Source: a virus. Taken from it: a stretch of 64,000 nt of DNA. Below are positions 12,389 to 29,832 of this stretch, piece by piece. Under the pieces are notes generated by a model. The model was not told the DNA's origin and did no database searches. It saw nothing but the letters and a program-made list of their open reading frames with translations. A program made the position numbers and the translations under genes. Where the stretch lies: the IMG/VR virus record IMGVR_UViG_3300032893_000013, positions 1 through 64,000 of that record. The stretch is one strand, 5' to 3'. Position 1 is the stretch's first letter. Each line of letters opens with the position of its first letter.

Positions 12389-13450
12389 TTATACGGGTTT
12401 GTTGGCCTGTCCTGGTCTGTTGGGCTGAACCTTCATTGGCTTATCAGCCGATGCCATTATGGCATCTTTTGCGTCTTTCGACGGTTCTTTCATATTTTCC
12501 GGCTTCTCTTCCGACTTCACAGTCAAGTTGTTTTCCGGACTGCGTTGCTTACGCGGATCTTTCAAAGTCCTCAAGTGGTTGAAAAAGCGGTGCATTGCTT
12601 CATGTCCCTTGCGTTCAACTTGGTGCATTGCTTTGGGCAAGCTGACCATTCCTTCAGCGACCGCGTGCGACCGCTCTTCGGGACTGCCAGGAGGATGAGG
12701 TTTGTCATCTTTTGCGATCACCGCGCCAAAACCTGCGTTCGGGCGAGAAGTGGGAGTCGAGGGAGCGCCAACGCCGCCGAGAGCTTTCTTCATATGGCGA
12801 CCGGGATTTTCTGGCTTAACGCCAGCGGCTACGCAGACTGCGTGTGGATTTTTTACACTAGGACTTTGTTCCTTGACGTGTTCAACGCAACGATCATGTT
12901 TGCTTTCGGCAGCTTTGTGAACGTGTTCGGGTAATTTTTTCCCTTTTGAGGCTTCGTCGAATTCATGAACGGTCGCGTGGCTGATTTCGCCTCGATTTTC
13001 CATTGCATGAAATTTTTTCCTTTGAGCATCAGAAACGTAAGGCTTACCGAGAGGAGCCGGTTTCTTTTCAGAAGCAGTCAAAGTCTTCATGCACTTGCTC
13101 ATGAATCCCTTCCAATCGTGCTGACTTCTGTGAAGTTGCGACGTAGTGGAACCTGGATCTGCTTTGACAATTCCGGTGGACGCATCGGCTCCGGCGCCGG
13201 GATTCAAGTTGGACTGCATTGCGCCCATCTCGCCCATTTGGCCGCCCTTGTCGAGAAGGGTGCCGGGAAGTTTCGTGTGAGGATCAATTTTCTTGAGTTC
13301 TTCTTGAACATCTTCGATGGCTTTCTTGAGCGGAGCCATATGCTGCGAGCGAATTTCTTTGATGAATTCATTCACCACGTCACGGAGATTGCCGCGCTTG
13401 TTTTGCTCAAGCATCTCATTTACAAGCTCTAAAGCCTTTTTGGTGTCCAT
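12389..13450 (-). CDS. Putative internal head polyprotein of small modules
   Basis: About 10 hydrophobic-x-K motifs (LKKA, IVKA, VHKA, MKKA, IAKD, TVKS) separating short modules. Confidence 0.7.
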   Translation of the reverse strand: MDTKKALELVNEMLEQNKRGNLRDVVNEFIKEIRSQHMAPLKKAIEDVQEELKKIDPHTKLPGTLLDKGGQMGEMGAMQSNLNPGAGADASTGIVKADPGSTTSQLHRSQHDWKGFMSKCMKTLTASEKKPAPLGKPYVSDAQRKKFHAMENRGEISHATVHEFDEASKGKKLPEHVHKAAESKHDRCVEHVKEQSPSVKNPHAVCVAAGVKPENPGRHMKKALGGVGAPSTPTSRPNAGFGAVIAKDDKPHPPGSPEERSHAVAEGMVSLPKAMHQVERKGHEAMHRFFNHLRTLKDPRKQRSPENNLTVKSEEKPENMKEPSKDAKDAIMASADKPMKVQPNRPGQANKPV

Positions 13451-13460
13451 ATATGATCCC

Positions 13461-13958
13461 TTATTTTTTTCCTTTTAAGCCATATCCATTGACTGTCATT
13501 GGCGACTGAATCTCTTTTGGATTGTCAACAATGCCACGAGTCGTAACAATTTGCGGTTCACTCACCGCTGCCGGTTGAGGCTGTACCGACTTTTTCATTG
13601 CCTTCTTAACAATTCCGCTCAAGCGCGGATCGAACAACTTGTTCGACTTTACTCCATTCGAGGACACTGAACGAGGGTGCATACGCTGGCCCTGAACAAT
13701 TCCGCTCTGACTGGGTGCCGGTTTCATCTTCGAGTAATCGAGAGTGTTTCCGGCTTTCGGAGTCTCGGGCAGCTTCTTCATCTGACGAACTTGCTTGAGC
13801 ATATTTTTCAGATAGTCATTCTTGTCGAGCTTTTCAGACGCGAAAAGATTAGTGCCAGAACTTTTCTGCAAATTTTTCTCAATAGAATCAGCTTCGCCTT
13901 TGATGCGGAGCCATTGTTGCAACTTTGCTTGAAGTTCCTTCTCGGTCATTACACCCAC
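13461..13958 (-). CDS. Putative internal head protein
   Basis: LQKS, LDKN, VKKA, MKKS motifs; late operon. Confidence 0.65.
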   Translation of the reverse strand: MGVMTEKELQAKLQQWLRIKGEADSIEKNLQKSSGTNLFASEKLDKNDYLKNMLKQVRQMKKLPETPKAGNTLDYSKMKPAPSQSGIVQGQRMHPRSVSSNGVKSNKLFDPRLSGIVKKAMKKSVQPQPAAVSEPQIVTTRGIVDNPKEIQSPMTVNGYGLKGKK

Positions 13959-14398
13959 TCCCCACGGTGCGCGTGATGGACGAGTGATTTGACGGCTGAC
14001 TGAATACTGTCATGAACCATCGGATGCTGAGACTTTATATCGCCGGTCGCGCTGTCAATATGATGGATCGTGAACGACGGTTTTTTCTGAGCGGCGTTGT
14101 GCATGTCCATGTTGATTTCGTAATGTGAGTGCGATCCAGGAAGGCCGACCATATGAGTCATCGTTCCTGAAGTTGTGTGCTTGACTCCTAAATGGCGAAG
14201 GCCGGGTTTCGCACCGGCCAATCCTTGCTGAACCTGTGATTTCTCGGGTTCACCCGGAGCTTTAGGCTGGGCCGGGGCCGCAGGCTTCTGCGGCATGGGC
14301 ATGATCTTGGCGTCTTTTTCCAAATTTTTGACTTCGGAAATAGCGGCGCGCAAATCATTCAGGGATGTTAGTTTTTTCAGTAGTGCCTTATAGTCCAT
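13949..14398 (-). CDS. Putative internal head protein, His-rich
   Basis: LEKD after short N-terminal helix; directly after late motif. Confidence 0.65.
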   Translation of the reverse strand: MDYKALLKKLTSLNDLRAAISEVKNLEKDAKIMPMPQKPAAPAQPKAPGEPEKSQVQQGLAGAKPGLRHLGVKHTTSGTMTHMVGLPGSHSHYEINMDMHNAAQKKPSFTIHHIDSATGDIKSQHPMVHDSIQSAVKSLVHHAHRGEWV

Positions 14399-14411
14399 GG
14401 CTCTCTCAAAA

Positions 14412-14436
14412 TTAAGATTTAGTCTTAAATACTTGA
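14412..14436 (-). promoter_or_regulatory. Late-promoter-like motif copy
   Basis: TCA-agtat-TTA-agact-AAATCTTAA. Confidence 0.7.
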
Positions 14437-14437
14437 A

Positions 14438-15409
14438 TTAAGGATCATTTTCGCCATCCCAACCTTGTTCTTCAGCTTGCTCCAAAACGGCATCAGGCGA
14501 AGTCATGTCATCAATCTTGATGGTCGTACTTACGCCATCAATGAGAGGAGTGGTCGATTCGATTGCGGAATGTTCAACACGGCCAGTAACTTTTACAGTC
14601 CGGCCATACAAAAGGTTCGGATCATCTTCGGCTGAAGCGCGGAAAATCGGCCCGTAAGTTACCGAGGAGATAGCCCAGTTTCTTTCGCCCCACAAGACTT
14701 TCTTGTAGCGAATAAGCATAGTCATTACGATGGTATAGAGATACAAAACCTCGACAGCATCGGTCGCCAAAAGCTCAAGCTCAACATCTTCCCAAGCCCA
14801 AATTGATCGGCGCGTGTGGCCGACAAGATTTTGCGACGGACGAATGGTCATTCCGGTCAAGTTCGGGGCCGGGCTGAGTCCTTCTTCGAGGAGAAGGTTG
14901 GAATCATCAATCACGAGTTGGATTTGGTATGATTTTTTGTTGATTTCATCAAAGACGTATTGGCCTTCGTAAATATTCGATGTTGTAAGATTTACTCCAT
15001 CGCCGAAAGTCACTTGGCCGGTCAAATTGTCGTAGCTGATCGGAGTCGTTGGCGGCAAAAGAATCATCGGAGCCGGGAAAACGCCGCCGAGAGTTGCAGG
15101 ATCAACCTTTTCCTGTTGGAAACTGTCGCCGAGAGCGTCCTTGGCTTTGTCTTCATCGCCGGAGCCTACCTTGATGACGATTGCCGGGAATGTGGCCTGA
15201 TCGGGAAGGCGATGTTCTGTGAACACGAAAATTTTTCTATTGATGAAAGCCTTGAAGTTCTGGATTTCTTTTTCGCCATAGGCTTGCTTCAAGTATGGAT
15301 CTTTCATCAGATTGGAATAGGCGTCTTCCAAAACGAACTGATTCTTGCGGAGATCCGCAAGGCCAGCCGAGAGAGAAGAATACCAAATGAGATCCGTCTG
15401 AAAAATCAT
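14438..15409 (-). CDS. Virion structural protein, probable tail completion/terminator
   Basis: FPAIVI motif, acidic, position in neck-tail order. Confidence 0.55.
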   Translation of the reverse strand: MIFQTDLIWYSSLSAGLADLRKNQFVLEDAYSNLMKDPYLKQAYGEKEIQNFKAFINRKIFVFTEHRLPDQATFPAIVIKVGSGDEDKAKDALGDSFQQEKVDPATLGGVFPAPMILLPPTTPISYDNLTGQVTFGDGVNLTTSNIYEGQYVFDEINKKSYQIQLVIDDSNLLLEEGLSPAPNLTGMTIRPSQNLVGHTRRSIWAWEDVELELLATDAVEVLYLYTIVMTMLIRYKKVLWGERNWAISSVTYGPIFRASAEDDPNLLYGRTVKVTGRVEHSAIESTTPLIDGVSTTIKIDDMTSPDAVLEQAEEQGWDGENDP

Positions 15410-16290
15410 TATGTACCACTCACAATTTTAGAAATTGTACTTTCCCAAAGAACGTCAAGCTCTTTTTCGACTTCTTCAAAAGCATGAAAGCCTTCACGGC
15501 CTGGGTGATCCCACGCGCCGGTTCCTTTTTGCGAATCCGAAACTGTTCTGAACGTCAAAACGTCTTTCATGATTTTGCTTTTGCCAGTTTTCATCTTCAC
15601 TTCGCGCTGATAGATTGCAATGCCGGACAGAAGTGGTCTGAAAGTCTTTTCATGCTGCGGAGCGCCGCGTCTATTCATCGCCTCTTCGAGTCTTCGTGTA
15701 GCGTCGTTTTTAACACGACCGAGGACTGGCTTACCGTCCGCTGCGGTGATCGTTTTGTCGAGGCCATGTTCTTTAAGTTGCTGTTTTACGAAAGAAGCAA
15801 TTTTGTTCTGGGCCAGAGACATTTGACTTGATGGTCTGCTGTGCTCGAAAGGAACGGCAGCGTATCGGCCATTCTTACCTTTTTTCACCCACGATTGACC
15901 GGCATTCTTACCTTTTTTCACCATCGACTTGGAGCCGAGGAGATAGTCGATCATGTTGTGCTTAGGCTGGCCGTCTTCAATCCATTGGGCTGGCTTATAA
16001 AGAACGACAGACCAAATTTCATTCTCGGCGCTCGATTCAATCTTGAGAAGATCGAGATTCTCCATGTATTTCTGGCGCGTAGACTTGAGCTTCATTCCCT
16101 TGCTATTGCCCTTTTCGGTTTTGTCGCCGATCATGGCATGAGCTTGGCCCGCAAGAGTTTGAATTTCCTTCTTGGCTTTGTTTTTCACTTCTTCGGTGAA
16201 CGAATTGATGTCTTTATTGAGACTCCGAAGAGCCTCTTCCATGGAATAGACCTTAGCCATTTTTGCCCTCGCTAGGATCTTGTAATCCAC
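15409..16290 (-). CDS. Probable neck/tail-completion protein (HK97 gp10-like, SPO1/Twort type)
   Basis: Basic; WIEDG, YAAVPF-x-H, TFRTVSD, W-x-HPG motifs. Confidence 0.65.
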   Translation of the reverse strand: MDYKILARAKMAKVYSMEEALRSLNKDINSFTEEVKNKAKKEIQTLAGQAHAMIGDKTEKGNSKGMKLKSTRQKYMENLDLLKIESSAENEIWSVVLYKPAQWIEDGQPKHNMIDYLLGSKSMVKKGKNAGQSWVKKGKNGRYAAVPFEHSRPSSQMSLAQNKIASFVKQQLKEHGLDKTITAADGKPVLGRVKNDATRRLEEAMNRRGAPQHEKTFRPLLSGIAIYQREVKMKTGKSKIMKDVLTFRTVSDSQKGTGAWDHPGREGFHAFEEVEKELDVLWESTISKIVSGT

Positions 16291-19200
16291 CGCCGAACGA
16301 AGACCATTCTCCAGACTGTCCTTTTATACGCTCATCCTGTGACGAATATCGGCGAATAGAACCGGGAGCGTAAACCATTTTTCTTCGATGAATCGGCTCA
16401 TCTTGCGCTGGCTGTCCAGGTTGTGAAGGCTGACCGGGCTGTCCGCCGCCATCTTGTTGCATCTGAGCTTGCTGCTCTTCGATTTGTTGCTGGATTTCCA
16501 GTTCATGAACAAGAGCTTGAGGATCTTCTCCAGTTTTGCGCTTGAAAACGGAAATGAGCGATTGCACGAGCTTATGAATAGCCTCATACGCTTGAGGATT
16601 CGATTCTTTCAATTGATTCCACGTCTCGGCATTGTCTTTGATGGCCTTCAAGGTCATGGCAACTTTGGTGCGCGTCGAAGCATCAACTTCACTCTTACGA
16701 ATGGCTTCTTTATAAGTCGGATTGCCTTTATGTTCAGGATTGCTCTGAGTAGGAAGTTCGCCATACGTTCCCTCAGAATATTTCATTTTCTTCGGAATAT
16801 TGCCGTATCCTTCTTGCATATGAACGGGCAGCGGGACGGGCAAAGATGGAACTTCGATCTGTTTCAGTTCAAGGTGCGGATCTTTTTTGCGATCTTCGAC
16901 GTGCTGAATGTATGCAGCTTCGTTTTGATCTTGAATGCCGCTCAAATATTTCTCATACGCATCGCCGATTGCGTCCAAATGTTCTGGCTTTAATTCTTTG
17001 AACGACGCCGGAGCGAGCTTACTTTTTTGCCCCCATGCTATGAGTGCGCGAGCGCCATGGTCAAGATTGCCCTTTTTGGCATCTTCCATCAACTCCTTAG
17101 CCTTGCCCTTATCTTTGATTTGGATTTGCGTCATTTGACCAGAGATAGGAGCTTTCGATTGGGGCTGCCAAATATGGACTGGCGTATTCCCAAAACCCTT
17201 TTGACGCATGTACTCTTTGAATGCTTCGTGTAAAACTTCACTAGGATGGCGATTGCCAAACAGAATATTGGTAATTTTCTGAACATGCTCTTCAGGATAA
17301 TAGTCTTTTGCACGCTTCATGGCATCTTCGGCCTGCTCTTCAGAAATGGCTCCCGTGCGCAACGCCTCTTTTGCTTGCTCAGCCACTTTCTTAATCATAG
17401 ATTGACCAAAGTCGGTCTGAACTTCATCAATGTGAAAGCCAGTTTCTGGATTCCCAGTGTAACGTACCCATCCTAAAGTGTTAGGACGCACTGGATGGCC
17501 AGAGCGGAAAGTAGCTTCATGGATTTTTTGGAATGTAGGAAGAACTCCCTCTTTTTCCATTTGCGCCACTTGATCTTGTGTATAATTCAATTGGAAAACG
17601 CCCTGCTTTTCGTCAGAATGGCGTTGGCCGCCTTCCCAATCGCTGTGAGAAGTATTGTATCCAGTTCCTGGCATTTGGTCGATATATCCCTGAATATCCT
17701 TCGAGGAAATTGTGCCTTTCGGACTGAACAGCTTATCAATCGGTGCGGTGTTTACGCCCATAGACTTCATCTTGGACTTCGACATCGTTCCGCCATTTTG
17801 ATCCAAGAAATCACGCAAAATGCGAAGAGGATGTGTTCCCAATTTAACATTGACGGGATCGGCAGTAGGAGGAAACCTTCGCTGTTGAACATGATGGGCA
17901 GCTTTGCGAATGTGTGTAGCGTCGCTGTTCAAAGCGTGGTTGATGACTTCCGCAGTTGCATTTGGGTGCCTAACCGCAGCTTCTTGAGATTGCGCATTCG
18001 GAACTTTCTGCATAACACCAAGCAGAGATTCGGGGCTGATGTTGAAATGAGGCTCCAAAGCTGCACGCAAGCCCGCTTGATAATCGCCTTTTTCGACAGC
18101 CTTATTGACGATAGCCTGTGCCATTTCATTAGGAGCGGCGGCATGATCGAGTGCCTTTTGGGCAACACTATCATCGTCAGGAAATTTTTCGAGTGCAAGC
18201 TGTATATGCTCAGGAGTCGCTTTGGGATTGCTCAACGCTTTCTTTGCCAAATCGACATCGCCAGATTCAATGGCTTGCTTTATATGTTCAGGACGCAAGT
18301 TTTTTGTGTTGCTTAGAACGGCCTTCTTCATGTCATCATCATAATCGCCGCCCAAAACATGAGAAATCAATTCAGGCGTCATATTTTCGTTTGCGGCAGC
18401 GGTATCACGCACCATCTTTAGAGGATGGTCAAGACCTTGCTTCAACTGTTCGGGAGTGATGTTTTCTTCATCTGCCCAAGGAGCTTTTACTGCTTCAGAA
18501 ACGTGGCGTGGAAGAAATTTATCAGACGAAGACCAGTTTTTTAACTCATCGGCAAACATTTCATTCATCCGCTGATAAACTGCATCACTATTCGACTCGT
18601 CGTATCCTTCGTAAATAGAATCCGGAGTCTGCTCGTTGTCCATGGCAGATTTGAATGCTTCTTGAGATTTATCTTCCAAATCTCCATCGTATTCAGGAAG
18701 ATCCTCCAACTCGCTATCGTCTAAATCTTTGAGTTTTACAGTTTTGGGATTGTGACCGTTATAGTCAGTTTCCGGCTCATCGGACATAAAATTTGGATTT
18801 GGAACGGCCTCTTCGCCTTTATTTTCTCTGAGCCATTCCTTTTTCCAATCGCTGTAATCTTTGTCGAAATATGCCTGAGAAAGTTCATCGTCACTGAAAT
18901 TTTTCAGATAATCAGAAAGAGGATTGTCCTCTTGAACTTCCTGTTCCGCTTCTTCCCGGTAATCATCCCAGAGATTGTCTTCGTGCTCTTCACGAAATTT
19001 CTTTTTTAGATCGTCCTCATCGTAACCCTTACGATGAGCGTCTTGATCCCATAAGCTCAACATTTCTAAAGCATGTTTGGGATCTATATTGGCATTATTG
19101 AAGAGCGCAAATTTTTGGTCAAAGTCACCATGACGCTTGATGTGTTCGATCTGATCTGGCGTCAAATATTTCGACTCAGCGGCGGCTTGAGCCATACGAG

Positions 19201-21932: not shown

Positions 21933-22355
21933 TTACGGCTCTTGAATTAGTTGCGTATCGTCTTTGACTTCATACAAGCCGACTTTATTAGAGTCAGTTT
22001 GAATGAAAGAGTTTTCGCCAGCGGCAAGTGGACTCCAAGAATTTGGAGGAAGCGGAATGCCATTCGTGAAACCTGTGGGAGCGGCGGGAGCGGCTGTTCC
22101 GAGTGCTACCCAGTGAACGACCGAATCGTTATTGTAGAGCCACAAAATAGATCCTGGATAGACTGAACCGCCTCCAGAAACATCTCTGCCTGAACAATAA
22201 GTGTTGCCCTGCTGTTTCATGAACTCAGGACCTACTGACATGACCTTGTGGCCGCCCGAGTAGTTATTGCCCTGCGATGAGGCCAATGCGCTTTGGTCAA
22301 GGGCAGATCCCTTGTTTACGCGCCGCATTTTTGTGTAAGCATTGTTAATTGCCAT
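21933..22355 (-). CDS. Small beta-rich virion protein
   Basis: AGGAG RBS; follows late motif. Confidence 0.7.
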   Translation of the reverse strand: MAINNAYTKMRRVNKGSALDQSALASSQGNNYSGGHKVMSVGPEFMKQQGNTYCSGRDVSGGGSVYPGSILWLYNNDSVVHWVALGTAAPAAPTGFTNGIPLPPNSWSPLAAGENSFIQTDSNKVGLYEVKDDTQLIQEP

Positions 22356-22385
22356 GGAAAGCTCCTGTGTTCGTACACTCCAAAA

Positions 22386-22410
22386 TTAAGATTTTGACCT
22401 AAATTATTGA
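22386..22410 (-). promoter_or_regulatory. Late-promoter-like motif copy
   Basis: TCA-ataat-TTA-ggtca-AAATCTTAA. Confidence 0.7.
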
Positions 22411-22418
22411 TTTCACTA

Positions 22419-23306
22419 TTATCTTGGGCCGGTATTGCCGCCGTCACCAGACTCCAAAACCTGCGCGGTGTCTTTGTCTTCCTGCGTTCTGTGCTGCAAA
22501 TAAACCCAATCGGCCTGAACCATTGCCAGCACCGGACCAGCCTTCGGAGTGACATTTCCGTCCGGTTCCAGCTTCGGTCGAATGCGGATGTCGTGAAGAA
22601 CCGTCTTGATGTAATAAAAGGGCTTGTAGGTGTACCGGATGGCGCAAACCTTGCCACTGCCGGTCTGTTCGTCGATTCCTGGCCGGGAGGCACCGTCGAT
22701 CCACTGAATGTAGCCATTAACTACCTGAAAGTGTTGATCTTTCTGATAGGCCACTCCGTCACTGTCGATCAAGAAAAGGACTTCGCACACCTTAAACTGC
22801 ATCCGGTCAATGCCGGTCGGATTGTGAGTAAATTTCTGCCAGTTGACTGAAAAAAATTCAGACGGCAATTCGCACGGAATGAGCTTGTCATTCTCCGAAA
22901 CTGTAATTTTTTCAGTCGTATCTTTGTAGTAGCGATCCATAGAGATCGTTGCGCCCGAAGCTCCGTAGAGGCCCGCCGCGATATTTTTGAAATCTTTGGA
23001 GTTGTTCATGAAGGTGCCGTAAATGACGCCCTTCTTGACATAGATGAAGCCGTTTTCGCGCTGAAAACGATCATTGTTCTCAAATTGCTGATTTCCGTCA
23101 TCGTAACCAAAGCTGTGACGAACGTCGCCAGCGTTGTGTTGAAGAATCGGATCGGGAACGCACATATAGTGGAAAAACTTGAGGCCCTGATTGGCAATGT
23201 GTAGATTTTCTGCCGCAAAGTCAGGACGAACCGCATCCCACGGATCGTTGTAATTGATGGGCGCGTTCTGAAACTCACCCGGTTTTCGTTGTGATTCGTC
23301 TGCCAT
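22419..23306 (-). CDS. Virion neck/head-closure-type protein
   Basis: CVP, NGFIY, AIRY-x-x-x-P-x-YYI..VLHDIR pattern reminiscent of SPO1/Twort neck proteins. Confidence 0.55.
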   Translation of the reverse strand: MADESQRKPGEFQNAPINYNDPWDAVRPDFAAENLHIANQGLKFFHYMCVPDPILQHNAGDVRHSFGYDDGNQQFENNDRFQRENGFIYVKKGVIYGTFMNNSKDFKNIAAGLYGASGATISMDRYYKDTTEKITVSENDKLIPCELPSEFFSVNWQKFTHNPTGIDRMQFKVCEVLFLIDSDGVAYQKDQHFQVVNGYIQWIDGASRPGIDEQTGSGKVCAIRYTYKPFYYIKTVLHDIRIRPKLEPDGNVTPKAGPVLAMVQADWVYLQHRTQEDKDTAQVLESGDGGNTGPR

Positions 23307-23307
23307 T

Positions 23308-23580
23308 TTATTCCTCGTTGGCGATCTTGCTTAGGACATCGCCATGACATGGCTTCGGAGAACACCAACAGCCAAGCACTTTACCTTTTAGTTCACGTTT
23401 GATGTCGGCCATCATTTGCGGCTGACTCCGAACGTATTCTTCGTACTTCCTTATCGCTTCTTCCCGACTTTCAACCACAAAATGGGCTTTAGTGTCGGCT
23501 TTGTGCGAATATGGATTGCCCCATTTTGACGGGCGACCAATATAAACATCGAATGGAGCTTTCTTGCAGTGGACAACCAC
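23308..23580 (-). CDS. DUF4326 family protein
   Basis: VVHCKK..DVYIGRPSKWGNPY...L-x-GKVLGCWCSP-x-PCHGDVL; GTG start overlapping upstream TAG. Confidence 0.85.
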   Translation of the reverse strand: MVVHCKKAPFDVYIGRPSKWGNPYSHKADTKAHFVVESREEAIRKYEEYVRSQPQMMADIKRELKGKVLGCWCSPKPCHGDVLSKIANEE

Positions 23581-24242
23581 TATTCGCTCCAGTTTCCAAG
23601 TCCACGGGGAGCACGAACTGTCGGATTGGCTCTTTGCCACGCCAACTGAAGCGCATATTCCTGGAATGGAGGTTTTTCGTCTTTCAACTCGTGATGCAGG
23701 TCCATATGCTTCTCATGCTCTCGCTTTGCATCTGAATGACCAAGGCCAGACATCTGGTAATGGCGAAGAGCAATGTCAGAGTGCATCAATTGTCGCATTT
23801 GTGAATCGTGAAGTTCGGGACTCCATTGATTGGGCTTCATCGTCTTGTGAGCGCGCTCCATTTCACGAGCCTTACCGGCCATCCGAGAATGATGAGACGC
23901 AAGATCGTAATGATTCTGAGGAGTGGACTCAAGAACGGGATTCCCCATGGCATCGCTCTGCTTTGGCTCTTGCTTCAGAAGGATTTCATTCAACTGTTGC
24001 ATTTTTTGCATATCTTCAGACTTGAACAAGCTGTCATTCCATTGAACGTTCTTGTGAACTTGCGAAGCCTGATGGATTGCAAATGAGCGGTGAGATCCCT
24101 GTCCCATGATTTCAAGAGCGCCGCCTTTGGTCTTCAAAACTACCATGTTGAGGCCGCCTTTGGTCAGAACGTGAAGGACATCTCCCTTGTCGGTTTTGCC
24201 AATCGTCTCTATTTTCTTAACATCGTCCGGAGTTAGCGTCAT
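23580..24242 (-). CDS. Putative internal head protein
   Basis: LFKSE, LLKQE motifs separate two domains. Confidence 0.65.
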   Translation of the reverse strand: MTLTPDDVKKIETIGKTDKGDVLHVLTKGGLNMVVLKTKGGALEIMGQGSHRSFAIHQASQVHKNVQWNDSLFKSEDMQKMQQLNEILLKQEPKQSDAMGNPVLESTPQNHYDLASHHSRMAGKAREMERAHKTMKPNQWSPELHDSQMRQLMHSDIALRHYQMSGLGHSDAKREHEKHMDLHHELKDEKPPFQEYALQLAWQRANPTVRAPRGLGNWSE

Positions 24243-26943
24243 TTGGTAGCCCCTTTGTCCATGCGGCGTTGATGACCGAATCAACAGGATTGTCGTTTGC
24301 CGCTTCCTGAAGTTTCGTCAGTCGTTCCACGACTGGTTTTGGATCTATGTAAAATTTGTTCATTATGTCGATCATGTCGTATTTGTTGAGCGATTGAAGC
24401 CAATGCTTTACATTCAGTTCAACTTCCTGACTGTCGATCTTTGGCATATGTTGGAATTTCTCTTCCGGACTCATGCTGTCTTTATAACCCCACATCCTCA
24501 AGATGTAGGGAACGAATACGTTCTTTTCGTGCGCAGGATCAAAAGTCATGTCTGCAAAGGAAGAGCCGTGGTCAATCATTTTAATGGATGATCCATCCGT
24601 CAATACGTTATTCCCGTGCGAATCTGCGTCGCCCAAAATATAAATCATGGCGGCGAGCTTGTGGAGATCACCCGACCGGCGATATTTGTCCAGCAAACCT
24701 TGCATGGCCTTTGGCCTTTCGCGCTCCATATCGACTCCAGCAATGTAAGCCTGTGGATACATGCGGATTGCGACTGCCGGAGTCGCTTCATTCTCTTTCC
24801 GCACAATCTCACCGAGAATTGCATGAGGCGTGTACATGCCGAGATTGAAGATCCGGTTGGCCAAATAGTAAAACGCCGTCTCTTTGACGGTTTGAAGGCC
24901 CTTGCTTACGGATTTAATGCCTGGACGCTCACCAAACGGCTCAACTTTTATGAGCCATGAGTTGTCAGGCTCAAAGCCAGCAACAAAACTCTTATGAGTG
25001 AATTTACCGACGTTGGAAATGTCATGTATCTGCCCGGACTTGATTGCGTCATTGATGAGCTTGATAGATCGAAAATTTTGCATCACATCCGTAAACGGAA
25101 CGAACTTTTCAATATCACCAAACTCGCCCTTTGAATGCGTTTCGGATTTTTTGAATGGCGCGTGCTCTTGTTGCTTTTCCAGTTCGAGCATTTGCTGATA
25201 TTTTCTGTATTTCTGAACGTATGGATGAAGTGGAATCTTTTCTTCTGGCGTTTCAAGCGTTTTGGTGATCCCGTTCAGCCACGCATAGGCCATCTTGTTC
25301 TGGTCACCGTCAAAAATGTTGCGCAGTCGATTCCAATGCGCGTTGGCAATGTCAACTTCGGCGGAAGGATGCCGCGTCATCAATTGGTGAACTTTGTCGT
25401 TGTCATGGTAATCGACGCCTTGAAATTCTGGATATTTGCGCATCAGGGCTGGATTCTTGCGAAGAGTTTCCATGATGGTCATAGGCATAAGGCCATATGC
25501 GCCATATGCGCTCGTACCAGCGTGCGGACCTTCTTCCATCATAGCGTGTGACGTATTGAGGCCGGAAGATGACTCGATCATCTTTATTGGCTTCAACCCC
25601 ATGGCTGGCATCATTGGTGCCCGTTGGATAGACTGAACCGGCTTGGGTTCAGTGACCTGTTGAACTGTGGCGGGCATATTTTCAACCGGCAGCTTATAAC
25701 CAGATTCCTGCGGCGCACCAACAAGCGCCAGGGCCGTAACTGCCGGAACTATTTTTTTCATCATGTTCTTTTCTAAATGTAGCACATCATCGTCGTTCAA
25801 GGAAGCGGTCATGATGTCGAACATATCAATAGTTTCAGGGAAGCCTTCAGTTTTTCTCAAATTTGCAGTTTTTACATCGCCATAATTGTCGGCGTTGTGT
25901 AATCCTTGCACTGGTTTGTCAGAATTCCAAAGGGGAAGAGGCTGAAACTGCATTGCCTTCGTAGAAATCTTGAACTTGCCTTCGGGATGACCAATAACCA
26001 ATTCAGCTTCATTTTCGTGAGCGTGCTGTTGGCCCGGAGTCGTGCGGTGAAAGCCAGAGTGAAGAACGGATTTCACGGGAATCCATTGGCTCATGACAAC
26101 GCCCTGGTCGCCCGGCTGATTTTTGATGTCAGACCGGCCCCAAACGAATCGAGAAGCCATTTCAGGATCGGCAGTCCAGCTTGTCAAGTGTGCGGTTGGG
26201 ATCAAGAAGTTCTTGTGATCGGCTTCATTCGTCTTTGGATCGTATTTGGCCTTTGCGCGAATCAATTGGCCATAATTGCCGTTGACGCCGCGATATAGCT
26301 TGATGTATGGGATGCCACGAAAATACTTCTTTGGAAGCGTATCATCTTCCATCACTTTCTTCTGAACTTCGCGGGCGTGCTCCATCATCGCAGGAATAAT
26401 GTGCATGAAATCCTTTGAAGATCCCACTAGGCCACGGTGATCCTTCAATTCTTCTGGCTTGCCAGTGAAAAGAGACTTTACGACCGCAAAATGATGAGGC
26501 TGGACCGACTTTTCATATCCATGCCAGAAGTCTGTCGCTTGGGTGAGAAGCTGATTCTTTTTGTTTCGGACAAAATGCGGATGGTTGAAAATGTAATTAG
26601 TGACGTAAGAATCGTTCATTCCCAATTCAGCAACGCGATTGAGAGTTTCGTTTGAAAGCGGCTCAGCTTCGGGATAATGTCCAGCCGCATCGCCAGGAAG
26701 ATGTCCGGCCAATTCAAAAAGGAACGACGGCAGATTCTGATGCTGAGTATGGTACTTGTTGCCCAAATGATTCAGAACTTTTTGAACAAAATGATCGGGA
26801 AGGGCGCCAGCACTTGGCAAACGCTGCCAAACGTCCCAATTGGCGGGAAGAGTCTTGGCATAATCGAACGCACGATCCCAGTCCTTGTTTTTGATTGCGT
26901 CAAAAACTGCCCGTTCATTTCTTTCGTGCGTTGCGTTGTCCAT
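24217..26943 (-). CDS. Polyprotein: R-S-E ADP-ribosyltransferase + lytic transglycosylase + PI3/4-kinase/HipA-like kinase
   Basis: LYRG..TSWT..ENEAE; IESS..GAYGLMP..AYAWLNG..YVQK; LIK..E-x-AFY..D-x-DSHGNN..IDHG. Confidence 0.8.
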   Translation of the reverse strand: MDNATHERNERAVFDAIKNKDWDRAFDYAKTLPANWDVWQRLPSAGALPDHFVQKVLNHLGNKYHTQHQNLPSFLFELAGHLPGDAAGHYPEAEPLSNETLNRVAELGMNDSYVTNYIFNHPHFVRNKKNQLLTQATDFWHGYEKSVQPHHFAVVKSLFTGKPEELKDHRGLVGSSKDFMHIIPAMMEHAREVQKKVMEDDTLPKKYFRGIPYIKLYRGVNGNYGQLIRAKAKYDPKTNEADHKNFLIPTAHLTSWTADPEMASRFVWGRSDIKNQPGDQGVVMSQWIPVKSVLHSGFHRTTPGQQHAHENEAELVIGHPEGKFKISTKAMQFQPLPLWNSDKPVQGLHNADNYGDVKTANLRKTEGFPETIDMFDIMTASLNDDDVLHLEKNMMKKIVPAVTALALVGAPQESGYKLPVENMPATVQQVTEPKPVQSIQRAPMMPAMGLKPIKMIESSSGLNTSHAMMEEGPHAGTSAYGAYGLMPMTIMETLRKNPALMRKYPEFQGVDYHDNDKVHQLMTRHPSAEVDIANAHWNRLRNIFDGDQNKMAYAWLNGITKTLETPEEKIPLHPYVQKYRKYQQMLELEKQQEHAPFKKSETHSKGEFGDIEKFVPFTDVMQNFRSIKLINDAIKSGQIHDISNVGKFTHKSFVAGFEPDNSWLIKVEPFGERPGIKSVSKGLQTVKETAFYYLANRIFNLGMYTPHAILGEIVRKENEATPAVAIRMYPQAYIAGVDMERERPKAMQGLLDKYRRSGDLHKLAAMIYILGDADSHGNNVLTDGSSIKMIDHGSSFADMTFDPAHEKNVFVPYILRMWGYKDSMSPEEKFQHMPKIDSQEVELNVKHWLQSLNKYDMIDIMNKFYIDPKPVVERLTKLQEAANDNPVDSVINAAWTKGLPNDANSGRC

Positions 26944-28151
26944 TACTTCCACCTGTGAATTGGAACTGACCATTCCATGACAGTGTGATCTGGGATGTCG
27001 ATTTTGACTTCTTTCATCGGAGTCTCAAGCTGCGCTCGAATATCGTCAAGAGAGCTTATGGATTTTTTCATATGCTCAGAACTTGCCAACTTCTTTTCGT
27101 CGCCCAATTGAACTGGAGGAAACATTTTGTTCATGTCGAGCTTGCTCTTGTCGCGCACAAAAATGTGGTGACGATCCGCTTCATACGCCGCAGACTCGCC
27201 AGGACTCATAAACGTATCCGCATCGGCTTTTGGATATTTCGCAATACGTCCACCGATGCCGGGAACGCTTCGGAATGACTTCCATGCCTTATGAGCTTCA
27301 GGCGACACGTTTGCTCCAGACGTGATTTGTCCCACGCCATGGACTAGACTCGCCATGTAAAGTTGGCGACCAAGACCTTTGCCTCGAACACTGGGATGAA
27401 CTTCAGACCACATTACAACGTTGGGATGCCTTCCGCCTTCCGCCATAGGATCTTCTTCGTGCTCAGTTTCCATGTACGCAAGCGGCTCCAAATTGTCTTT
27501 TGGATCGTACAGCGCATGGATGATTCGAGAATTGGGAAATTGCGGGAAATCTCTGCTAGGTTTACGTCGATACTGCCGATATTCCAGTCCATTGGGAAGA
27601 GCGACCTTTTTCACCTGGACATGAGCTTCGCTATTGGCCAAGTCAGGGAACGCTTTGTCTTTTCCTTCAGGAGAATAGCTCTCGAAACGAAGTGGAGCTT
27701 TTTGAAGATCCTCAGATTTTTTCGTCTGATTCTCAAAATTCAAATTGTGTTGCATGTACAGCGGGCCGTCAACGGTGTGAATTATGGTGTAATTGTCGGT
27801 CGGCTTGGATTTGGTCCAATTAGTGCCTTCTCCTGAAACTATTTTACCAACATCGGGACCATTGACATAATGAAGCTGATGCTTTCCCTCATTGGAGTGC
27901 AAAACAGATTCTTGACCAAAATCTTTGGCCATTTGCATGATGCCTTTGGTATTCTTCGGATTCTCAACCAAAATTGATCGTTCTGGCTCACCGTAAAATC
28001 CTTCAACGATATGGGCGTCTTCACCTTGCGAATTCAAAAACTTCGTCACATCTTCGATTGATGGATTCTGGGCATGAGCACTCTTGAAGCGCGGCTTCTC
28101 AGGCGTGAACATCATGTGATGGCTTGCGACAGGAGCAATGGCGTTACGCAT
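26943..28151 (-). CDS. Polyprotein: DUF3293-like domain + GNAT acetyltransferase
   Basis: G-x-YG-x-x-E-x-S..FGQESV; VHPSVRGKGLGRQLY..S-x-EA-x-x-x-W. Confidence 0.75.
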   Translation of the reverse strand: MRNAIAPVASHHMMFTPEKPRFKSAHAQNPSIEDVTKFLNSQGEDAHIVEGFYGEPERSILVENPKNTKGIMQMAKDFGQESVLHSNEGKHQLHYVNGPDVGKIVSGEGTNWTKSKPTDNYTIIHTVDGPLYMQHNLNFENQTKKSEDLQKAPLRFESYSPEGKDKAFPDLANSEAHVQVKKVALPNGLEYRQYRRKPSRDFPQFPNSRIIHALYDPKDNLEPLAYMETEHEEDPMAEGGRHPNVVMWSEVHPSVRGKGLGRQLYMASLVHGVGQITSGANVSPEAHKAWKSFRSVPGIGGRIAKYPKADADTFMSPGESAAYEADRHHIFVRDKSKLDMNKMFPPVQLGDEKKLASSEHMKKSISSLDDIRAQLETPMKEVKIDIPDHTVMEWSVPIHRWK

Positions 28152-29832
28152 GGAGATTCTCTTCTGTTGCAATTGGATGTGGATGGAAAAGCTGAACCGT
28201 TCCTTTAATCACTGGATGGTCGGCATTAGGTGCCCAGATTCCCTTATAGCCATTTTTCTTGATGTTCGAGAAAATCATGTCAGTGTTCCACGCGCCGCCA
28301 TTGTTTTGTATGGCTTGGCTGACCAATCCTTTCGGATCTTTTTGAAGATCGTAAAGGTGCTGTGGATGAACGAATGATTTGTAGCGAGAAGCGGCGCCGG
28401 AAGTCACGATGTCTTCGGGTTCAGTTCCTTTGATGTAATGGAAGCTAGTCTTTGTTTCCGGAAGACCATATTTGTATTGGCCGCCTGAACGAACGCCTGA
28501 CGATCCCATTTTTTCAGGATCAATTTCCTTCAAACCTTGAATTGGACTGTAGTGAATCAATTCCAAAGGACCTTCTTCAGAGCGCATGAGCGGAGCGCCA
28601 TCGCCACGATTGCGGATCTTGCGGTTTCTGATTATACCACGCTTTGGATGGCGAACCAAGTATCCGGACGCGAGCCAATTGCTCATGACATAAGCCGGGA
28701 TGTCGAAATGATCGTGATTTTCTTTTTCTTGCGGCTGTTGCGGATCGGGCTGATGCTGGAGATAACTGCTTTGCCAATCTTGAGGCTGATCTAGCACATC
28801 AACGTCCTGCTTTTCAAGTTCAGATGCCGCCAACTTCTTTCTTTTTCGCTCTGCATGAAGTTTTTCATGCTCTTTGCGCGGCATGTCCTTAATAGTTCTC
28901 CATCCTCCAGGACTTCCAGGCGTTTCCCAAAGGTTACGCAGGTGCCAATCAGTTCCCTCAACTCCACGCTCCGCAACTGGTATGGTGTGATGACCGTGCG
29001 TTTCTGGCTTTTTCTGTCCGGCATCTTTTTCAAGATCATGCAGTTTGAGCTTTTTATTGCGCTCAACTTCCAGTTGAGCAATCTCTTCTGGAGTGTAAAT
29101 TTTTACAGGATTGAATTTACTTTTTCGGCGGGCTTCAAGAGCTTCTTTGATCGCTTGATGTTTTCCAGATTGGCGTCCGCCCGGAGCAATCTGCTTCACT
29201 TCTTTGTTTGGACCTGCGACTTCCGCGACTTGACCAGTGCGGTTTGATTTTCTTTGCGCATTGTCCTTTTGACTGTAGAGCTTCATGGGCTTTGGGCCGT
29301 AGTCAGATTTCGCAATCTCCGCTTTTTTTGCGGAGCTTTCTTCTTTTTTCTCCGCAGACTTCATTCCCATGAAAGAAAATACACAGTTCTTATCGACGGG
29401 TGTGTGTGAATTTTCAACGATCTCAGTCGGGACGATCCCGCCTTTGCAGTCGATCCACTCCCACTTGCCAACTTCTTTGTCGGGATCGTTTTTCGTTGTC
29501 GGCCTTTCGCCTTCCCAGTTGTATTTGAAGGCGTGGATCTTTTTCTTTTTGCCGGTGAACGTCGTGACATCTTTCGATCCTAAATATTTGAGATCCTTGG
29601 CATCAACTTTAATTCCAGCTTCCTCAAACAACTCACGGACGGCACCTTCATTTTTCTCTTCACCTTTATCGAGATGTCCGCCCGGAAGCGTCCATCGTCC
29701 ATTGTCGCGACGTTTACCCATAAGCAGAGAATCACCGTCGCAAACGGCAATAGTAGCCACTTCAGAAGTGTCATCTTTGGCCGCCTTCCGTAAGAGATCG
29801 TAAATTTTGAGGGTTTTTTCGAGAAAATCCAT
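28144..29832 (-). CDS. Polyprotein: Nudix hydrolase + small modules + ART-like C-terminal domain
   Basis: Nudix box GGHLDKGEEKNEGAVRELFEEAG; C-terminal LIHYS..IDP..LYD..GYKGI. Confidence 0.8.
   Translation of the reverse strand: MDFLEKTLKIYDLLRKAAKDDTSEVATIAVCDGDSLLMGKRRDNGRWTLPGGHLDKGEEKNEGAVRELFEEAGIKVDAKDLKYLGSKDVTTFTGKKKKIHAFKYNWEGERPTTKNDPDKEVGKWEWIDCKGGIVPTEIVENSHTPVDKNCVFSFMGMKSAEKKEESSAKKAEIAKSDYGPKPMKLYSQKDNAQRKSNRTGQVAEVAGPNKEVKQIAPGGRQSGKHQAIKEALEARRKSKFNPVKIYTPEEIAQLEVERNKKLKLHDLEKDAGQKKPETHGHHTIPVAERGVEGTDWHLRNLWETPGSPGGWRTIKDMPRKEHEKLHAERKRKKLAASELEKQDVDVLDQPQDWQSSYLQHQPDPQQPQEKENHDHFDIPAYVMSNWLASGYLVRHPKRGIIRNRKIRNRGDGAPLMRSEEGPLELIHYSPIQGLKEIDPEKMGSSGVRSGGQYKYGLPETKTSFHYIKGTEPEDIVTSGAASRYKSFVHPQHLYDLQKDPKGLVSQAIQNNGGAWNTDMIFSNIKKNGYKGIWAPNADHPVIKGTVQLFHPHPIATEENLHA

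Follow-up and report, generated by a model that had tools for sequence, protein, structure and literature searches.

[quoted passage not shown] The DNA analysed was a 64,000-nucleotide stretch of this phage, henceforth referred to as the window. Judging from the sequences, these enzyme chains are probably loaded into the head and separated there by cutting. We consider it fairly probable that the open reading frames (ORFs) between the capsid and sheath genes, apart from the site-free neck genes, are capsid-internal “polyvalent” cargo cut by an SPO1/HK97-type prohead serine protease; that this protease cuts after Lys, and that the chains are packaged, cut and ejected, is inferred. What the sequences themselves show are motif statistics, motif conservation, placement in predicted linkers, domain shuffling, three domain folds, and protease-cargo and portal-cargo fusions in relatives. 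The cargo domains comprise a Nudix domain, a SAM-lyase-like with a GNAT-like domain, an ART-like domain with a lytic transglycosylase and a PI4K/HipA-like kinase, an mCpol/GGDEF-like cyclase, and further folds without a match. Among the domain calls of an initial annotation, Nudix, lytic transglycosylase and kinase were confirmed by fold, while the GNAT and SAM-lyase-like assignments are weak, as are the two ART-like ones, which come from motifs and Atlas leads.

Table 1. Head, neck and candidate cargo features in the window
Feature	Coordinates (nt)	Strand	Basis or remark
Prohead serine protease, 336 aa	46960..47970	-	phrog_1028, E = 8e-10
Scaffold, 298 aa	45465..46361	-	Six strict sites, of which LSK↓SE (K194) is conserved in G001, Mx1
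MCP, 464 aa	44058..45452	-	phrog_752, E = 3e-39
MCP N-terminal site MLKK↓ALEAG (K12)	45417-45419	-	
Portal, 656 aa	50470..52440	-	Pfam Phage_portal, E = 1e-11
Portal C-tail site LGK↓SE (K605)	50626-50628	-	
Head-tail adaptor-like neck protein	29879..30784	-	phrog_772, E = 3e-16; phrog_442 (head-tail adaptor), E = 2e-4
Site-free conserved neighbours	22419-23306, 21933-22355, 15409-16290, 14438-15409		Taken as neck/tail genes
Candidate cargo polyprotein 1, 562 aa	28144..29832	-	Pfam NUDIX, E = 4.7e-17
Linker site AKK↓AE (K170)	29323-29325	-	
Candidate cargo polyprotein 2, 402 aa	26943..28151	-	Pfam S-AdoMet_lyase, E = 7e-6, below curated cutoff
Site TKK↓SE (K145)	27717-27719	-	
Candidate cargo polyprotein 3, 908 aa	24217..26943	-	Alignment, AF2 model, fold matches
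Site LRK↓TE (K364)	25852-25854	-	
Site LEK↓N (K392)		-	Within a 65-aa disordered stretch
Site FKK↓SE (K599)	25147-25149	-	
Small conserved cargo-block gene, 220 aa	23580..24242	-	Homologs in G001, L027, L029, L030, L032
Site SLFK↓SE (K74)	24021-24023	-	After N-terminal domain of ~70 aa
Cargo-block protein, 347 aa	20889..21932	-	Site kept in Mx1 and G001
Site TVQK↓SE (K286)	21075-21077	-	
Cargo-block protein, 285 aa	20032..20889	-	Pfam mCpol, E = 7e-4; GGDEF_2, E = 5e-3; both below cutoff
Site IQK↓SE (K140)	20470-20472	-	
Giant cargo-block protein, 1259 aa	16253..20032	-	Comparative
Sites AQK↓AE (K34), VNK↓AVE (K644), IRK↓SE (K1113)	16694-16696 (K1113)	-	
Three small Lys-rich ORFs	12389-13450, 13461-13958, 13949-14398	-	Just upstream of sheath gene
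Sites LKK↓AIE (K43), TVK↓SE (K312) in ORF 12389	12515-12517 (K312)	-	

The initial annotation had described a recurring hydrophobic-x-Lys motif in the late ORFs, with enrichment over early ORFs as the proposed check. In its loose form, [LIMFV]xK[SANTD], the motif was weakly enriched (approximately 1.6-fold; 47 observed vs. 29.7 expected in the window cargo and 23 vs. 12.4 in the head core), and the remaining genome also exceeded expectation (180 vs. 157). As a boundary mark it over-counts, many matches being within folded domains; in cargo polyprotein 3, for instance, six of nine fell at confidently folded, unconserved positions. By contrast, a stricter core, [LIVMFAT]xK[SATN]E, was strongly non-random: it occurred 11 times in the window cargo (2.6 expected, p = 8e-5) and 8 times in the head core, i.e., scaffold, portal, MCP and protease (1.3 expected), compared with 0 in the neck proteins (0.6 expected) and 10 in the other ORFs of the genome (13.2 expected, hence at or below expectation). 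Expected counts were obtained from within-protein shuffles that kept composition, and the excess over these was 4- to 8-fold. In Mx1, whose KSE list had been viewed along with the window before the strict core was tuned, cargo carried 14 sites (1.7 expected), core 6 (0.8), neck 0 and other ORFs 3 (5.8); the only clean replications are later loci and G001, an uncultured 159-kb relative (cargo 11 vs. 2.8, core 9 vs. 1.5, neck 0, other 1 vs. 5.5). Control motifs, whether permuted (ESK, KES) or substituted (RSE, KSD, phi-x-R-[SATN]-E), were flat. KSE itself was seen 3 times in the scaffold (0.8 expected), and within the first 41 kb of Mx1 it was confined almost solely to the portal, the scaffold and the capsid-to-sheath ORFs. 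The signal is degenerate, since several homologous sites in G001 are K↓SQ, K↓AE or lost (the latter in the 285-aa protein), and some strict-core matches, such as portal K327 in the conserved core, are probably not cut.

The strings quoted in the initial annotation were all present where it had placed them: LRKA, IAKS, LEKD and LEKQ in cargo polyprotein 1, TKKSEDLQKA and MKKS in 2, LRKT, LEKN and FKKSE in 3, LFKSE in the minus-strand 220-aa gene, and VQKSE, IQKSE, IRKSE and others elsewhere. The linker variant KLA(A/S)SE was likewise recovered in two ORFs, as KLAASE at nt 28836 (cargo polyprotein 1) and KLASSE at nt 27092 (cargo polyprotein 2), and the motif was seen at the MCP start (LKK↓A), throughout the scaffold, in the protease tail and at the portal C-terminus (LGKSE), as had been described.

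The catalytic domain of the protease spans approximately residues 1–190, with H46 and S145 invariant in 59 of 59 sequences, and is followed by a tail with K↓S and K↓A sites. BLASTP aligned it to an SPO1-type protease across the SVEG serine motif (E = 5e-10); the enzyme looks active and SPO1-type. Its tail copies the MCP N-terminus (LRK↓ALEAG..AAPG, residues 227–262, nt 47185-47292), a match that was found by search in the window, G001, Mx1 and G002, and by inspecting translations in SPO1L1. The MCP is 51% identical to that of Mx1 and approximately 25% identical to SPO1-group MCPs. The pattern of K↓S and K↓A recurs in the SPO1-type scaffold, portal N-terminus, MCP and protease tail, the MCP of SPO1L1 having the same K↓ALEAG after K23. 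In the portal C-tail, K↓SE aligns between the window, G001, Mx1 and G002, and the K↓SE position of the scaffold is conserved in three phages. Strict sites were absent from the neck and neighbouring proteins and from their homologs in Mx1, G001, L027, L029, L030 and L032. The reported interleaving of cargo with neck genes is not borne out as described: among the “neck” genes, the one at 29879 alone has a connector match, and the four site-free neighbours are presumed neck genes.

Cargo polyprotein 1 starts with a helix ending in LLRK↓AA, followed by the Nudix domain (model m11612280c5c9; Z = 14.9 to 3dku, rmsd 2.3, 130 aligned), a disordered K-rich linker carrying AKK↓AE and IAK↓S, a His-rich cassette bounded by LEK↓D and KKLAASELEK↓Q, and a C-terminal domain that is tentatively ART-PolyVal (an Atlas lead). 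Homologs have, at the place of the middle cassette between KKLAASELEK linkers, a GNAT domain or a Zn-finger-like segment, or lack any insert. Cargo polyprotein 2 consists of a SAM-lyase-like domain, TKK↓SE and then DLQK↓AP, a GNAT-like domain (weak GNAT matches overlap it in relatives), KKLASSEHMKK↓S and a short tail. Among the 148 matches listed by an exhaustive HMMER search, 101 had domain A only (median end at residue 146), 40 had domain B only (median start at 144) and 7 had both; the halves are therefore separate in 141 of 148 representative proteins, with the split at K145↓S146. K[SATN]E was found at 33–42% of internal borders in this family, compared with approximately 5% at random.

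Cargo polyprotein 3 is made up of an ART-like domain, LRK↓TE, LEK↓N, a lytic transglycosylase (442–594), FKK↓SE and a PI4K/HipA-like kinase (615–903). The kinase domain of its model matched 4pla (Z = 18.6, rmsd 3.4, 254 aligned) and PI3/PI4-kinase in Foldseek (prob 1.0), and the transglycosylase matched MltC 4c5f (Z = 11.7, rmsd 2.8, 124 aligned), while the ART-like call draws on the motif residues R218, S255 and E312-x-E314 plus weak Atlas leads. The R-S-ExE, transglycosylase E-S and kinase D/H/N residues are invariant in 19 sequences, as is K364 (19/19, alignment A1); K599 is kept in 18/19. The AF2 model (mc92c5cc8c278) has a mean pLDDT of 80, falling below 50 at 379–443 and 591–606. K599 (pLDDT ~32) lies in the linker between the transglycosylase (end ~594) and the kinase fold (start ~607–615), and K364 sits just ahead of the 65-aa disordered stretch, in a moderately ordered strand (pLDDT ~67) and not a free loop. 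Placement of the motif in predicted linkers, another check proposed at the outset, thus holds for K392 and K599 and for the four candidate sites of cargo polyprotein 1 (K170, K175, K269 and K341), all in blocks with pLDDT <50. The signal stays conserved although the low-pLDDT linkers around it vary.

In the homologs of the 220-aa protein from G001, L027, L029, L030 and L032, the column of its site reads [LM]-[FYM]-K↓[SA]-[EDT]. The 347-aa protein has a disordered, P/K-rich linker whose last residues are TVQK↓SE, before a Cys-rich C-terminal domain of ~60 aa; Mx1 keeps the site as K↓SE and G001 as K↓SQ, with an overall identity of 25–42%. The 285-aa protein has an mCpol/GGDEF-like, nucleotide-cyclase-like domain, IQK↓SE and a ~50-aa helical module, which phmmer also found at the C-terminus of the 1259-aa protein, preceded by IRK↓SE (IIRK↓AE at the K1113 column in G001). 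Pieces of this giant protein, for which no Pfam, PHROG or PDB match was found, are rearranged in L027, L029, L030 and L032. At the position equivalent to the three small ORFs, G001 encodes ORFs in which the linker MPKPNLPK↓SE occurs four times.

Domain shuffling at the motif, as anticipated, was seen in homologs of the cargo polyprotein 3, Nudix and cargo polyprotein 2 families. In G001 the transglycosylase has moved to a neighbouring ORF (breakpoints 372–376 and 614–617), L032 and L034 have chains of 1533 and 2261 aa in which sites mark the borders of the SLT and kinase domains, and 25% of internal BLAST endpoints lie within 10 aa of a site (5% at random). Moreover, 54 relatives of the protease are fusions of 589–1682 aa with the protease N-terminal and GGDEF as the commonest partner (18/54), besides PI3_PI4_kinase, DUF5661 and HEAT. 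Together they contain 113 strict sites (27.6 expected), many at ~186–200, just behind the catalytic domain. Mx1 and G002 have the same protease-cargo arrangement, and in the nearest Nudix relatives the fusion partner is a portal protein (PF06381) or Peptidase_S78_2. In the window, protease and cargo are encoded as separate ORFs, and a search for a targeting signal common to the cargo gave none, the MCP-like segment occurring in the protease only.

We propose that the cargo chains would be co-assembled into the prohead with scaffold and protease, their linkers carrying the protease signal (hydrophobic-x-Lys↓Ser/Ala/Thr/Asn-Glu, or the variant (K)LAASE-L-x-K↓). The activated protease would then cut the scaffold, portal tail, MCP N-terminus, its own tail and the cargo linkers, freeing single folded domains that would remain in the head. 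At infection these may exit with the DNA, opening the cell wall and modifying host targets.

Several other explanations can be considered. Cassettes are swapped exactly at the KKLAASELEK and K↓SE-DL-x-K↓AP junctions in hundreds of proteins, resembling the recombination joints of polymorphic-toxin-like systems (an analogy drawn in PMC5512222), and polyvalent proteins of the N4 vRNAP type reportedly enter the head without being cut (PMC5512222). The conserved linkers may thus be cassette-exchange joints or favoured flexible linkers of proteins that act intact, packaged or not, and are left uncut by the head protease. We consider this unlikely, given that the signal also occurs in the scaffold, portal tail, MCP N-terminus and protease tail, none of which are shuffled cassettes, that Lys and Glu are conserved across 25–40% identical proteins despite diverged linker DNA, and that sites stand just behind the catalytic domain in the 54 fusions. 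Exchange joints and cutting are mutually compatible readings. Alternatively, the prohead protease may cut the chains for the sake of head assembly; they would form an internal core or auxiliary scaffold, its fragments then being degraded or expelled, or DNA-condensing internal proteins, and would bring no enzymes to the host. Scaffold fragments normally leave the head, the three small ORFs and parts of the 1259-aa and 347-aa proteins are Lys-rich, of low complexity and without enzyme folds, and the shared helical module could be an assembly element. Such a role is nevertheless distinctly improbable for chains whose catalytic motifs are kept under selection (Nudix box, R-S-ExE, transglycosylase E-S, kinase D/H/N), whose folded domains of 15–35 kDa would hardly get out of a closed shell, and which include a cell-wall lytic domain without a role inside a capsid.

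Another protease, of the host or a second one of the phage, might cut late in the cytoplasm, with products acting in the producing cell instead of the next host; this would fit window cargo that is unfused to head proteins and has no recognised targeting signal. We find it very improbable, as the motif is common to every expected prohead-protease substrate, cargo is fused to protease or portal in relatives, and the genes lie within the virion module, between capsid and sheath. Finally, cargo ORFs are Lys-rich (8–14% K) and the loose motif is modestly enriched, so the motif could be a functionless by-product of Lys/Ser/Glu-rich composition, an explanation to which the excess over within-protein shuffles, the flat controls and a lysine that is invariant or nearly so in aligned columns leave next to no probability.

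SPO1- and Twort-type capsids are probably matured after a Lys, as their sequence pattern also suggests, and gp5 of HK97 is cut after Lys103. The window resembles SPO1/Herelleviridae and HK97 in its MCP (~25% identity), homologous protease, K↓ALEAG at the MCP N-terminus with its tail copy, and K↓S-filled scaffold. No multi-enzyme chains were seen in the 13-kb head region of SPO1L1, and by this comparison, limited to that region, the cargo block would be an addition of the Mx1-like lineage. Phage T4 builds enzymes and small basic proteins, among them IPI-III and Alt, an ADP-ribosyltransferase, into the prohead core, where the prohead protease gp21 trims them before they are injected with the DNA; each is a single-domain protein that loses a short N-terminal targeting peptide by a cut at L/I-x-Glu. 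In the window, by contrast, a Lys-based signal stands between the domains of multi-enzyme chains, and no common targeting peptide was found. In the giant phages SPN3US, phiKZ and 201phi2-1 the prohead protease cuts many internal head proteins at a short motif (PMC10052503). The protease, gp245, also trims off its own C-terminal propeptide, and the portal is processed too. Cleavage in SPN3US takes place after Glu (A-X-E), and N-terminal propeptides are what is released at 13 of the 14 known sites (PMC10052503). Unlike the cuts proposed here, those of SPN3US do not part enzymes from each other.

Effector domains fused to MuF or portal proteins were reportedly described by Jamet et al. in 2017. 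There, effector domains are carried into the head as part of a fused head protein (PMC5512222), and close Nudix relatives here are portal fusions as well; however, no MuF domain was detected here, where the cargo forms separate chains or, in relatives, fusions to the protease, with cleavage-type linkers. A further parallel is the polyvalent proteins of phages and conjugative elements (Iyer, Burroughs, Anand, de Souza and Aravind 2017, J Bacteriol; PMC5512222), and the cargo idea is less novel than the initial annotation implied, as that study already proposed polyvalent phage proteins with ART, kinase, GNAT and GGDEF domains, noted assemblin-like peptidase domains in them and suggested processing at assembly. 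These proteins likewise combine several unrelated enzyme domains per chain (ART, kinase, GNAT, GGDEF, Nudix neighbours, cell-wall enzymes), lie beside portal-terminase virion genes and show cassette-like variability; for them, too, packaging and delivery alongside the DNA are predictions (PMC5512222). Relatives of the window carry LPD1 and DUF5661, as polyvalent proteins do, and the C-terminal domain of cargo polyprotein 1 has an ART-PolyVal lead. That study proposes chiefly self-processing by zincin-like MPTase domains and places the assemblin-like peptidase “always at the C termini” (PMC5512222), whereas each of the 54 fusions found here begins with the protease, which is otherwise encoded by a separate gene. 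The kinase here has a PI4K/HipA-like fold, compared with a truncated Ser/Thr kinase there, and the borders carry a Lys-based signal common to scaffold, portal, MCP and protease tail.

We found that the window, which covers the initial 64 kb of a 108-kb phage contig, carries its terminase, portal, protease, scaffold, major capsid protein (MCP), cargo block and sheath genes on one strand and in synteny with Myxococcus phage Mx1 and the uncultured relative G001. Mx1 is the nearest named relative (MCP 51% identical, compared with ~25% for SPO1-group MCPs), and syntenic uncultured relatives in IMG/VR comprise G001 (159 kb), G002 (131 kb) and the loci L027-L034. The closest relatives, P0002 and P0003, share 70-73% identity; a megablast search of the block against deposited phages gave no match. 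We refer to ORFs between capsid and sheath, other than neck genes, as cargo, and name them by their start coordinates; the scaffold, portal, MCP and protease make up the head core. Among the presumed neck genes only the head-tail adaptor-like 29879 had a connector-family match, and NCBIfam returned no match for the MCP, the neck proteins or the protease, the last of which was also without a Pfam match.

Features of the window discussed in the text (coordinates in nucleotides)
Feature	Coordinates	Strand	Remarks
Large terminase	53480-55345	minus	
Portal	50470-52440	minus	
Portal-adjacent gene	49661-50470		
Prohead protease	46960-47970	minus	
MCP-like segment of protease	47185-47292	minus	protease residues 227-262
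Scaffold	45465-46361	minus	
Scaffold tandem repeat	46116-46253	minus	scaffold residues 37-82; KKEESSM, 7 residues, about six copies
MCP	44058-45452	minus	
803-aa protein	38839-41250	plus	P-loop kinase, calcineurin-like phosphoesterase and T4 Rnl1-type RNA ligase (Pfam, PHROG)
Cargo/neck block	29922 to 12389		downstream of head module
Cargo gene 23580	23580-24242	minus	conserved
ORF with no Lys	23564-24025	plus	probably spurious
110-aa ORF	23308-23640	minus	between cargo gene 23580 and a neck gene; pattern GNPY...GCWC..C.HGD
Presumed neck gene	22419-23306		
Helical module in 20032	20275-20469	minus	middle of the protein
Helical module in 16253	16478-16693	minus	C-terminus of the protein
938-aa ORF	9240-12056		after the block; 57% identical to its G001 counterpart; occupies the position that the tail sheath gene has in Mx1

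Two further genes in this region deserve mention. The gene for the 803-aa protein, in which all three enzymatic parts are combined in one chain, sits in a plus-strand island that breaks up the late minus-strand genes. The 110-aa ORF carries a pattern which we take to resemble DUF4326, and relatives have no gene at its position.

The initial annotation had proposed that ten late ORFs carry a recurring Lys-based motif at apparent domain boundaries, at which a prohead protease would cut. All of the strings that it quoted are present in the window, and its tenth ORF, containing LFKSE, corresponds to cargo gene 23580. The permissive motif [LIMFV]xK[SANTD] that it put forward was only mildly enriched (47 occurrences vs 29.7 expected in cargo and 23 vs 12.4 in the head core, with 180 vs 157 in the rest of the genome) and proved too permissive to predict sites: six of its nine hits in the modelled cargo protein 24217 fell at confident, folded and unconserved positions. 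We therefore turned to a stricter form, [LIVMFAT]xK[SATN]E, with expected counts derived from within-protein shuffles. In the window, this strict motif occurred 11 times in cargo (2.6 expected), 8 times in the head core (1.3), never in neck genes (0.6) and 10 times in other ORFs (13.2); the corresponding counts were 14 (1.7), 6 (0.8), 0 and 3 (5.8) in Mx1, and 11 (2.8), 9 (1.5), 0 and 1 (5.5) in G001. Control motifs, permuted and substituted alike (ESK, KES, RSE, KSD and an Arg version of the strict motif), were flat. The strict motif was tuned after inspection of the window and of the KSE occurrences listed for Mx1, which leaves G001 and the later loci as the only clean replications. Plain KSE in the window cargo alone reached modest significance (7 vs 2.6 expected, p 0.017).

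Candidate sites, written here with a bar after the Lys, were also conserved in position. The K|SE of the portal C-terminal tail occupies the same column in four phages, and the L-x-K|SE of the scaffold does so in three. In the family of 24217 (19 homologs, 40-73% identical), K364 is invariant, K599 is kept in 18 and K392 in 17 of the 19 sequences; Ser prevails at P1' and Glu occupies P2' in 17/19, while neighbouring linker residues are free to vary. Elsewhere in the cargo, the site of 20889 reads K|SE in the window and Mx1 and K|SQ in G001, that of 16253 changes from K|SE in the window to K|AE in G001, and that of 23580 keeps the form [LM][FYM]K|[SA][EDT] in six phages.

Several local features were observed around such sites. 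A helical module of ~50-70 aa lies right behind a K|SE site in both 16253 and 20032. The counterparts of both proteins in G001, G002 and Mx1 have this module as well, and it may serve in oligomerisation or head targeting. In G001, two adjoining ORFs (54067-56071) lie immediately upstream of the sheath gene and together contain the linker MPKPNLPK|SE four times, with three of the copies at intervals of ~190 aa; from their sequence they look like a tandem module array with cleavage-type joints. The portal-adjacent gene has a longer homolog (624 aa) in the uncultured locus L030 (1353-3227), which contains an insert and a single strict site; in this contig, cargo genes directly follow the protease, with no scaffold or MCP gene in between. 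The tandem repeat of the window scaffold is not present in this form in the scaffolds of G001 or Mx1.

We then considered where the candidate sites fall in predicted structures. The AlphaFold2 model of 24217 (908 aa; mean pLDDT 80) has three confident domains. One of these, residues 442-594, matches the lytic transglycosylases MltC (Z 11.7, rmsd 2.8, 124 aligned) and Slt70 (Z 9.9); another, residues 615-903, matches kinases of the PI4K-II and HipA types (Z 18.6, rmsd 3.4, 254 aligned). Domain 1 carries an invariant R...S...E-x-E pattern typical of ADP-ribosyltransferases, and the Atlas leads for it, to DRAT and ART, were weak. In 28144 (model with mean pLDDT 67), a confident Nudix domain (Z 14.9) is accompanied by two further domains, the C-terminal one with an ART-PolyVal Atlas lead (score 0.91, TM 0.56). 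Pfam searches at E up to 1 found no ART-PolyVal in the latter, no ART in domain 1 of 24217 and nothing in 16253, and PDB-chain sequence searches with 24217, 16253 and a profile of the 19-homolog alignment (A1) returned nothing useful. The places in the VIA and Foldseek lists went to the kinase, transglycosylase and Nudix domains, and not to domain 1 of 24217 or the middle and C-terminal domains of 28144. The expectation that sites would lie in predicted linkers was borne out in 28144, where all four internal candidate sites are in stretches with pLDDT <50, and held in part in 24217: K599 (within 591-606, pLDDT ~32) and K392 (within the disordered stretch 379-443) fit it, whereas K364 lies just ahead of the latter stretch in a moderately ordered strand (pLDDT ~67).

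Comparison of homologs, suggested earlier as a check for shuffling at the motif, revealed that domains had been moved, exchanged or split at the sites. The G001 homolog of 24217 is without the transglycosylase domain, which is found in an adjoining ORF, and the breakpoints (372-376 and 614-617 in a 918-aa ORF call, i.e., 362-366 and 604-607 in the 908-aa numbering of P0001) adjoin the conserved K364 and K599. In two relatives, the L032 and L034 chains of 1533 and 2261 aa, sites mark the borders of transglycosylase, kinase and Nudix domains. Members of the Nudix family differ in the cassette that lies mid-protein between two KKLAASELEK linkers, which may be His-rich, GNAT, Zn-finger-like or missing altogether. 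When cargo protein 26943 was searched exhaustively by HMMER, 148 representatives were listed, of which 101 had the first domain only, 40 the second only and 7 both; among these representatives, the first domain had its median end at residue 146 and the second its median start at 144, the KSE site being K145|S146. K[SATN]E was found at 33-42% of internal borders in relatives of 26943 vs ~5% at random, and almost every instance of the second domain follows K|SE-(D/E)-L-x-K|(A/S/T)-P or LAASE-L-x-K|A-P. More generally, 25% of internal BLAST endpoints lay at most 10 aa from a strict site, compared with 5% at random. Two relatives of 26943, P0132 and P0133, combine SAM-lyase-like, 2H phosphoesterase (2_5_RNA_ligase2), GNAT and PI3/PI4-kinase-like domains in one chain; the 2H domain in such chains could degrade defence signalling nucleotides.

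The candidate processing enzyme is the prohead protease, whose H46 and S145 (in SVEG) are invariant in 59/59 aligned sequences, including one of SPO1 type. It matched phrog_1028 (E 8e-10) and, by BLASTP, the protease in the head region of the SPO1-type phage SPO1L1 (34% over 94 aa, E 5e-10), and its gene lies between portal and scaffold/MCP, as in SPO1/HK97-type head modules; catalytic His and Ser, homology and gene position thus all agree with a SPO1/HK97-type (assemblin-fold) prohead serine protease. Its tail contains a copy of the MCP N-terminus (LRK|ALEAG..AAPG..LQxE), detected by search in the window, G001, Mx1 and G002 and by eye in SPO1L1. This MCP-like segment may dock the protease, with any fused cargo, to the capsid protein or scaffold. 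Segments resembling the MCP N-terminus or the scaffold were sought in the cargo ORFs and found only in the protease, and therefore no common targeting signal was identified among cargo ORFs. The SPO1-type scaffold is likewise dense with K|S sites and the SPO1-type MCP reads K23|ALEAG; the cleavage site of SPO1/Twort-type capsid proteins was looked for in the literature and not found among the papers searched.

Longer relatives of the protease (54 proteins, 589-1682 aa) carry it N-terminally in every case, followed by GGDEF (18/54), PI3_PI4_kinase, DUF5661 or HEAT partners, and many of these fusions hold their cargo as an insert between the catalytic domain and the MCP-like segment. The 54 fusions contain 113 strict sites vs 27.6 expected, many just behind the catalytic domain. 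This arrangement recurs in Mx1 (1239 aa) and in G002 (1569 aa, part of it kinase-like), and among the closest Nudix relatives the fusion partners are portal proteins or Peptidase_S78_2.

The most economical reading of these observations is that the block ORFs encode capsid cargo, which the prohead protease cuts at sites in the linkers, with Lys specificity, packaging, cutting and ejection all inferred. Cleavage after Lys is suggested by the K|S/A pattern that the expected substrates have in common. For Mx1-like myophages as a group, we give an even chance to the broader proposal that the capsid-maturation protease doubles as a polyprotein processor. Under this proposal, the single Lys-based code of the scaffold, portal, capsid protein and protease tail would also bound freely exchangeable enzyme cassettes (ART, kinase, transglycosylase, Nudix, GNAT, SAM lyase and nucleotide cyclase), which would enter the head either as separate chains or as fusions behind the protease, and there be cut apart and then injected.

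If this is true, effectors would be delivered by a modular system carried in the capsid, the cleavage grammar of which can be read. Were the cuts real, capsid cargo and its mature products could be read from sequence across a large, mostly uncultured phage lineage, the very large multi-enzyme ORFs inside virion modules would have a reason, and fusion to the head protease would stand as a general means of getting enzymes into capsids. The range of cargo (ADP-ribosyltransferase-like, kinase, Nudix, SAM-lyase-like, GNAT, cyclase-like and cell-wall enzymes) points to immediate host takeover or anti-defence, acting ahead of any phage gene expression. As Mx1 can be cultivated on Myxococcus xanthus, the prediction is testable.

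Processed head cargo is familiar from T4, where cleavage of Alt and the internal proteins follows a Glu and for the most part removes N-terminal propeptides. The T4 targeting signal is a short N-terminal peptide removed at L/I-x-Glu, whereas the signal in the window is Lys-based and mostly internal; 28144 is the sole cargo protein with a conserved N-terminal helix, ending LLRK|AA, and 24217 has no N-terminal site. In phiKZ and SPN3US, ejection proteins are cut after Glu at an A/S-X-E motif, in most cases with removal of an N-terminal propeptide (for SPN3US, PMC10052503), which again differs from the conserved sites described here, with Lys at P1 and a position between domains. A further parallel is provided by the 'polyvalent proteins' of phages, which contain ART, kinase, GNAT and GGDEF domains and for which packaging was predicted and assemblin-like peptidases were noted (Iyer et al. 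2017, PMC5512222), and the concept of capsid cargo is thus not new in outline. Like these, 24217 (transglycosylase, kinase and ART-motif) and 28144 (Nudix and two others) hold at least two unrelated enzyme or effector domains per chain, in a portal-terminase phage and a virion-gene context. Polyvalent marker domains (LPD families, ART-PolyVal, MPTase) had no Pfam match in the window ORFs; LPD1 and DUF5661 occur in Nudix relatives. What is distinct here is a Lys-based code common to all head-core substrates and cargo borders, the exchange of cassettes at that code, and protease-cargo fusions in which the protease is N-terminal.
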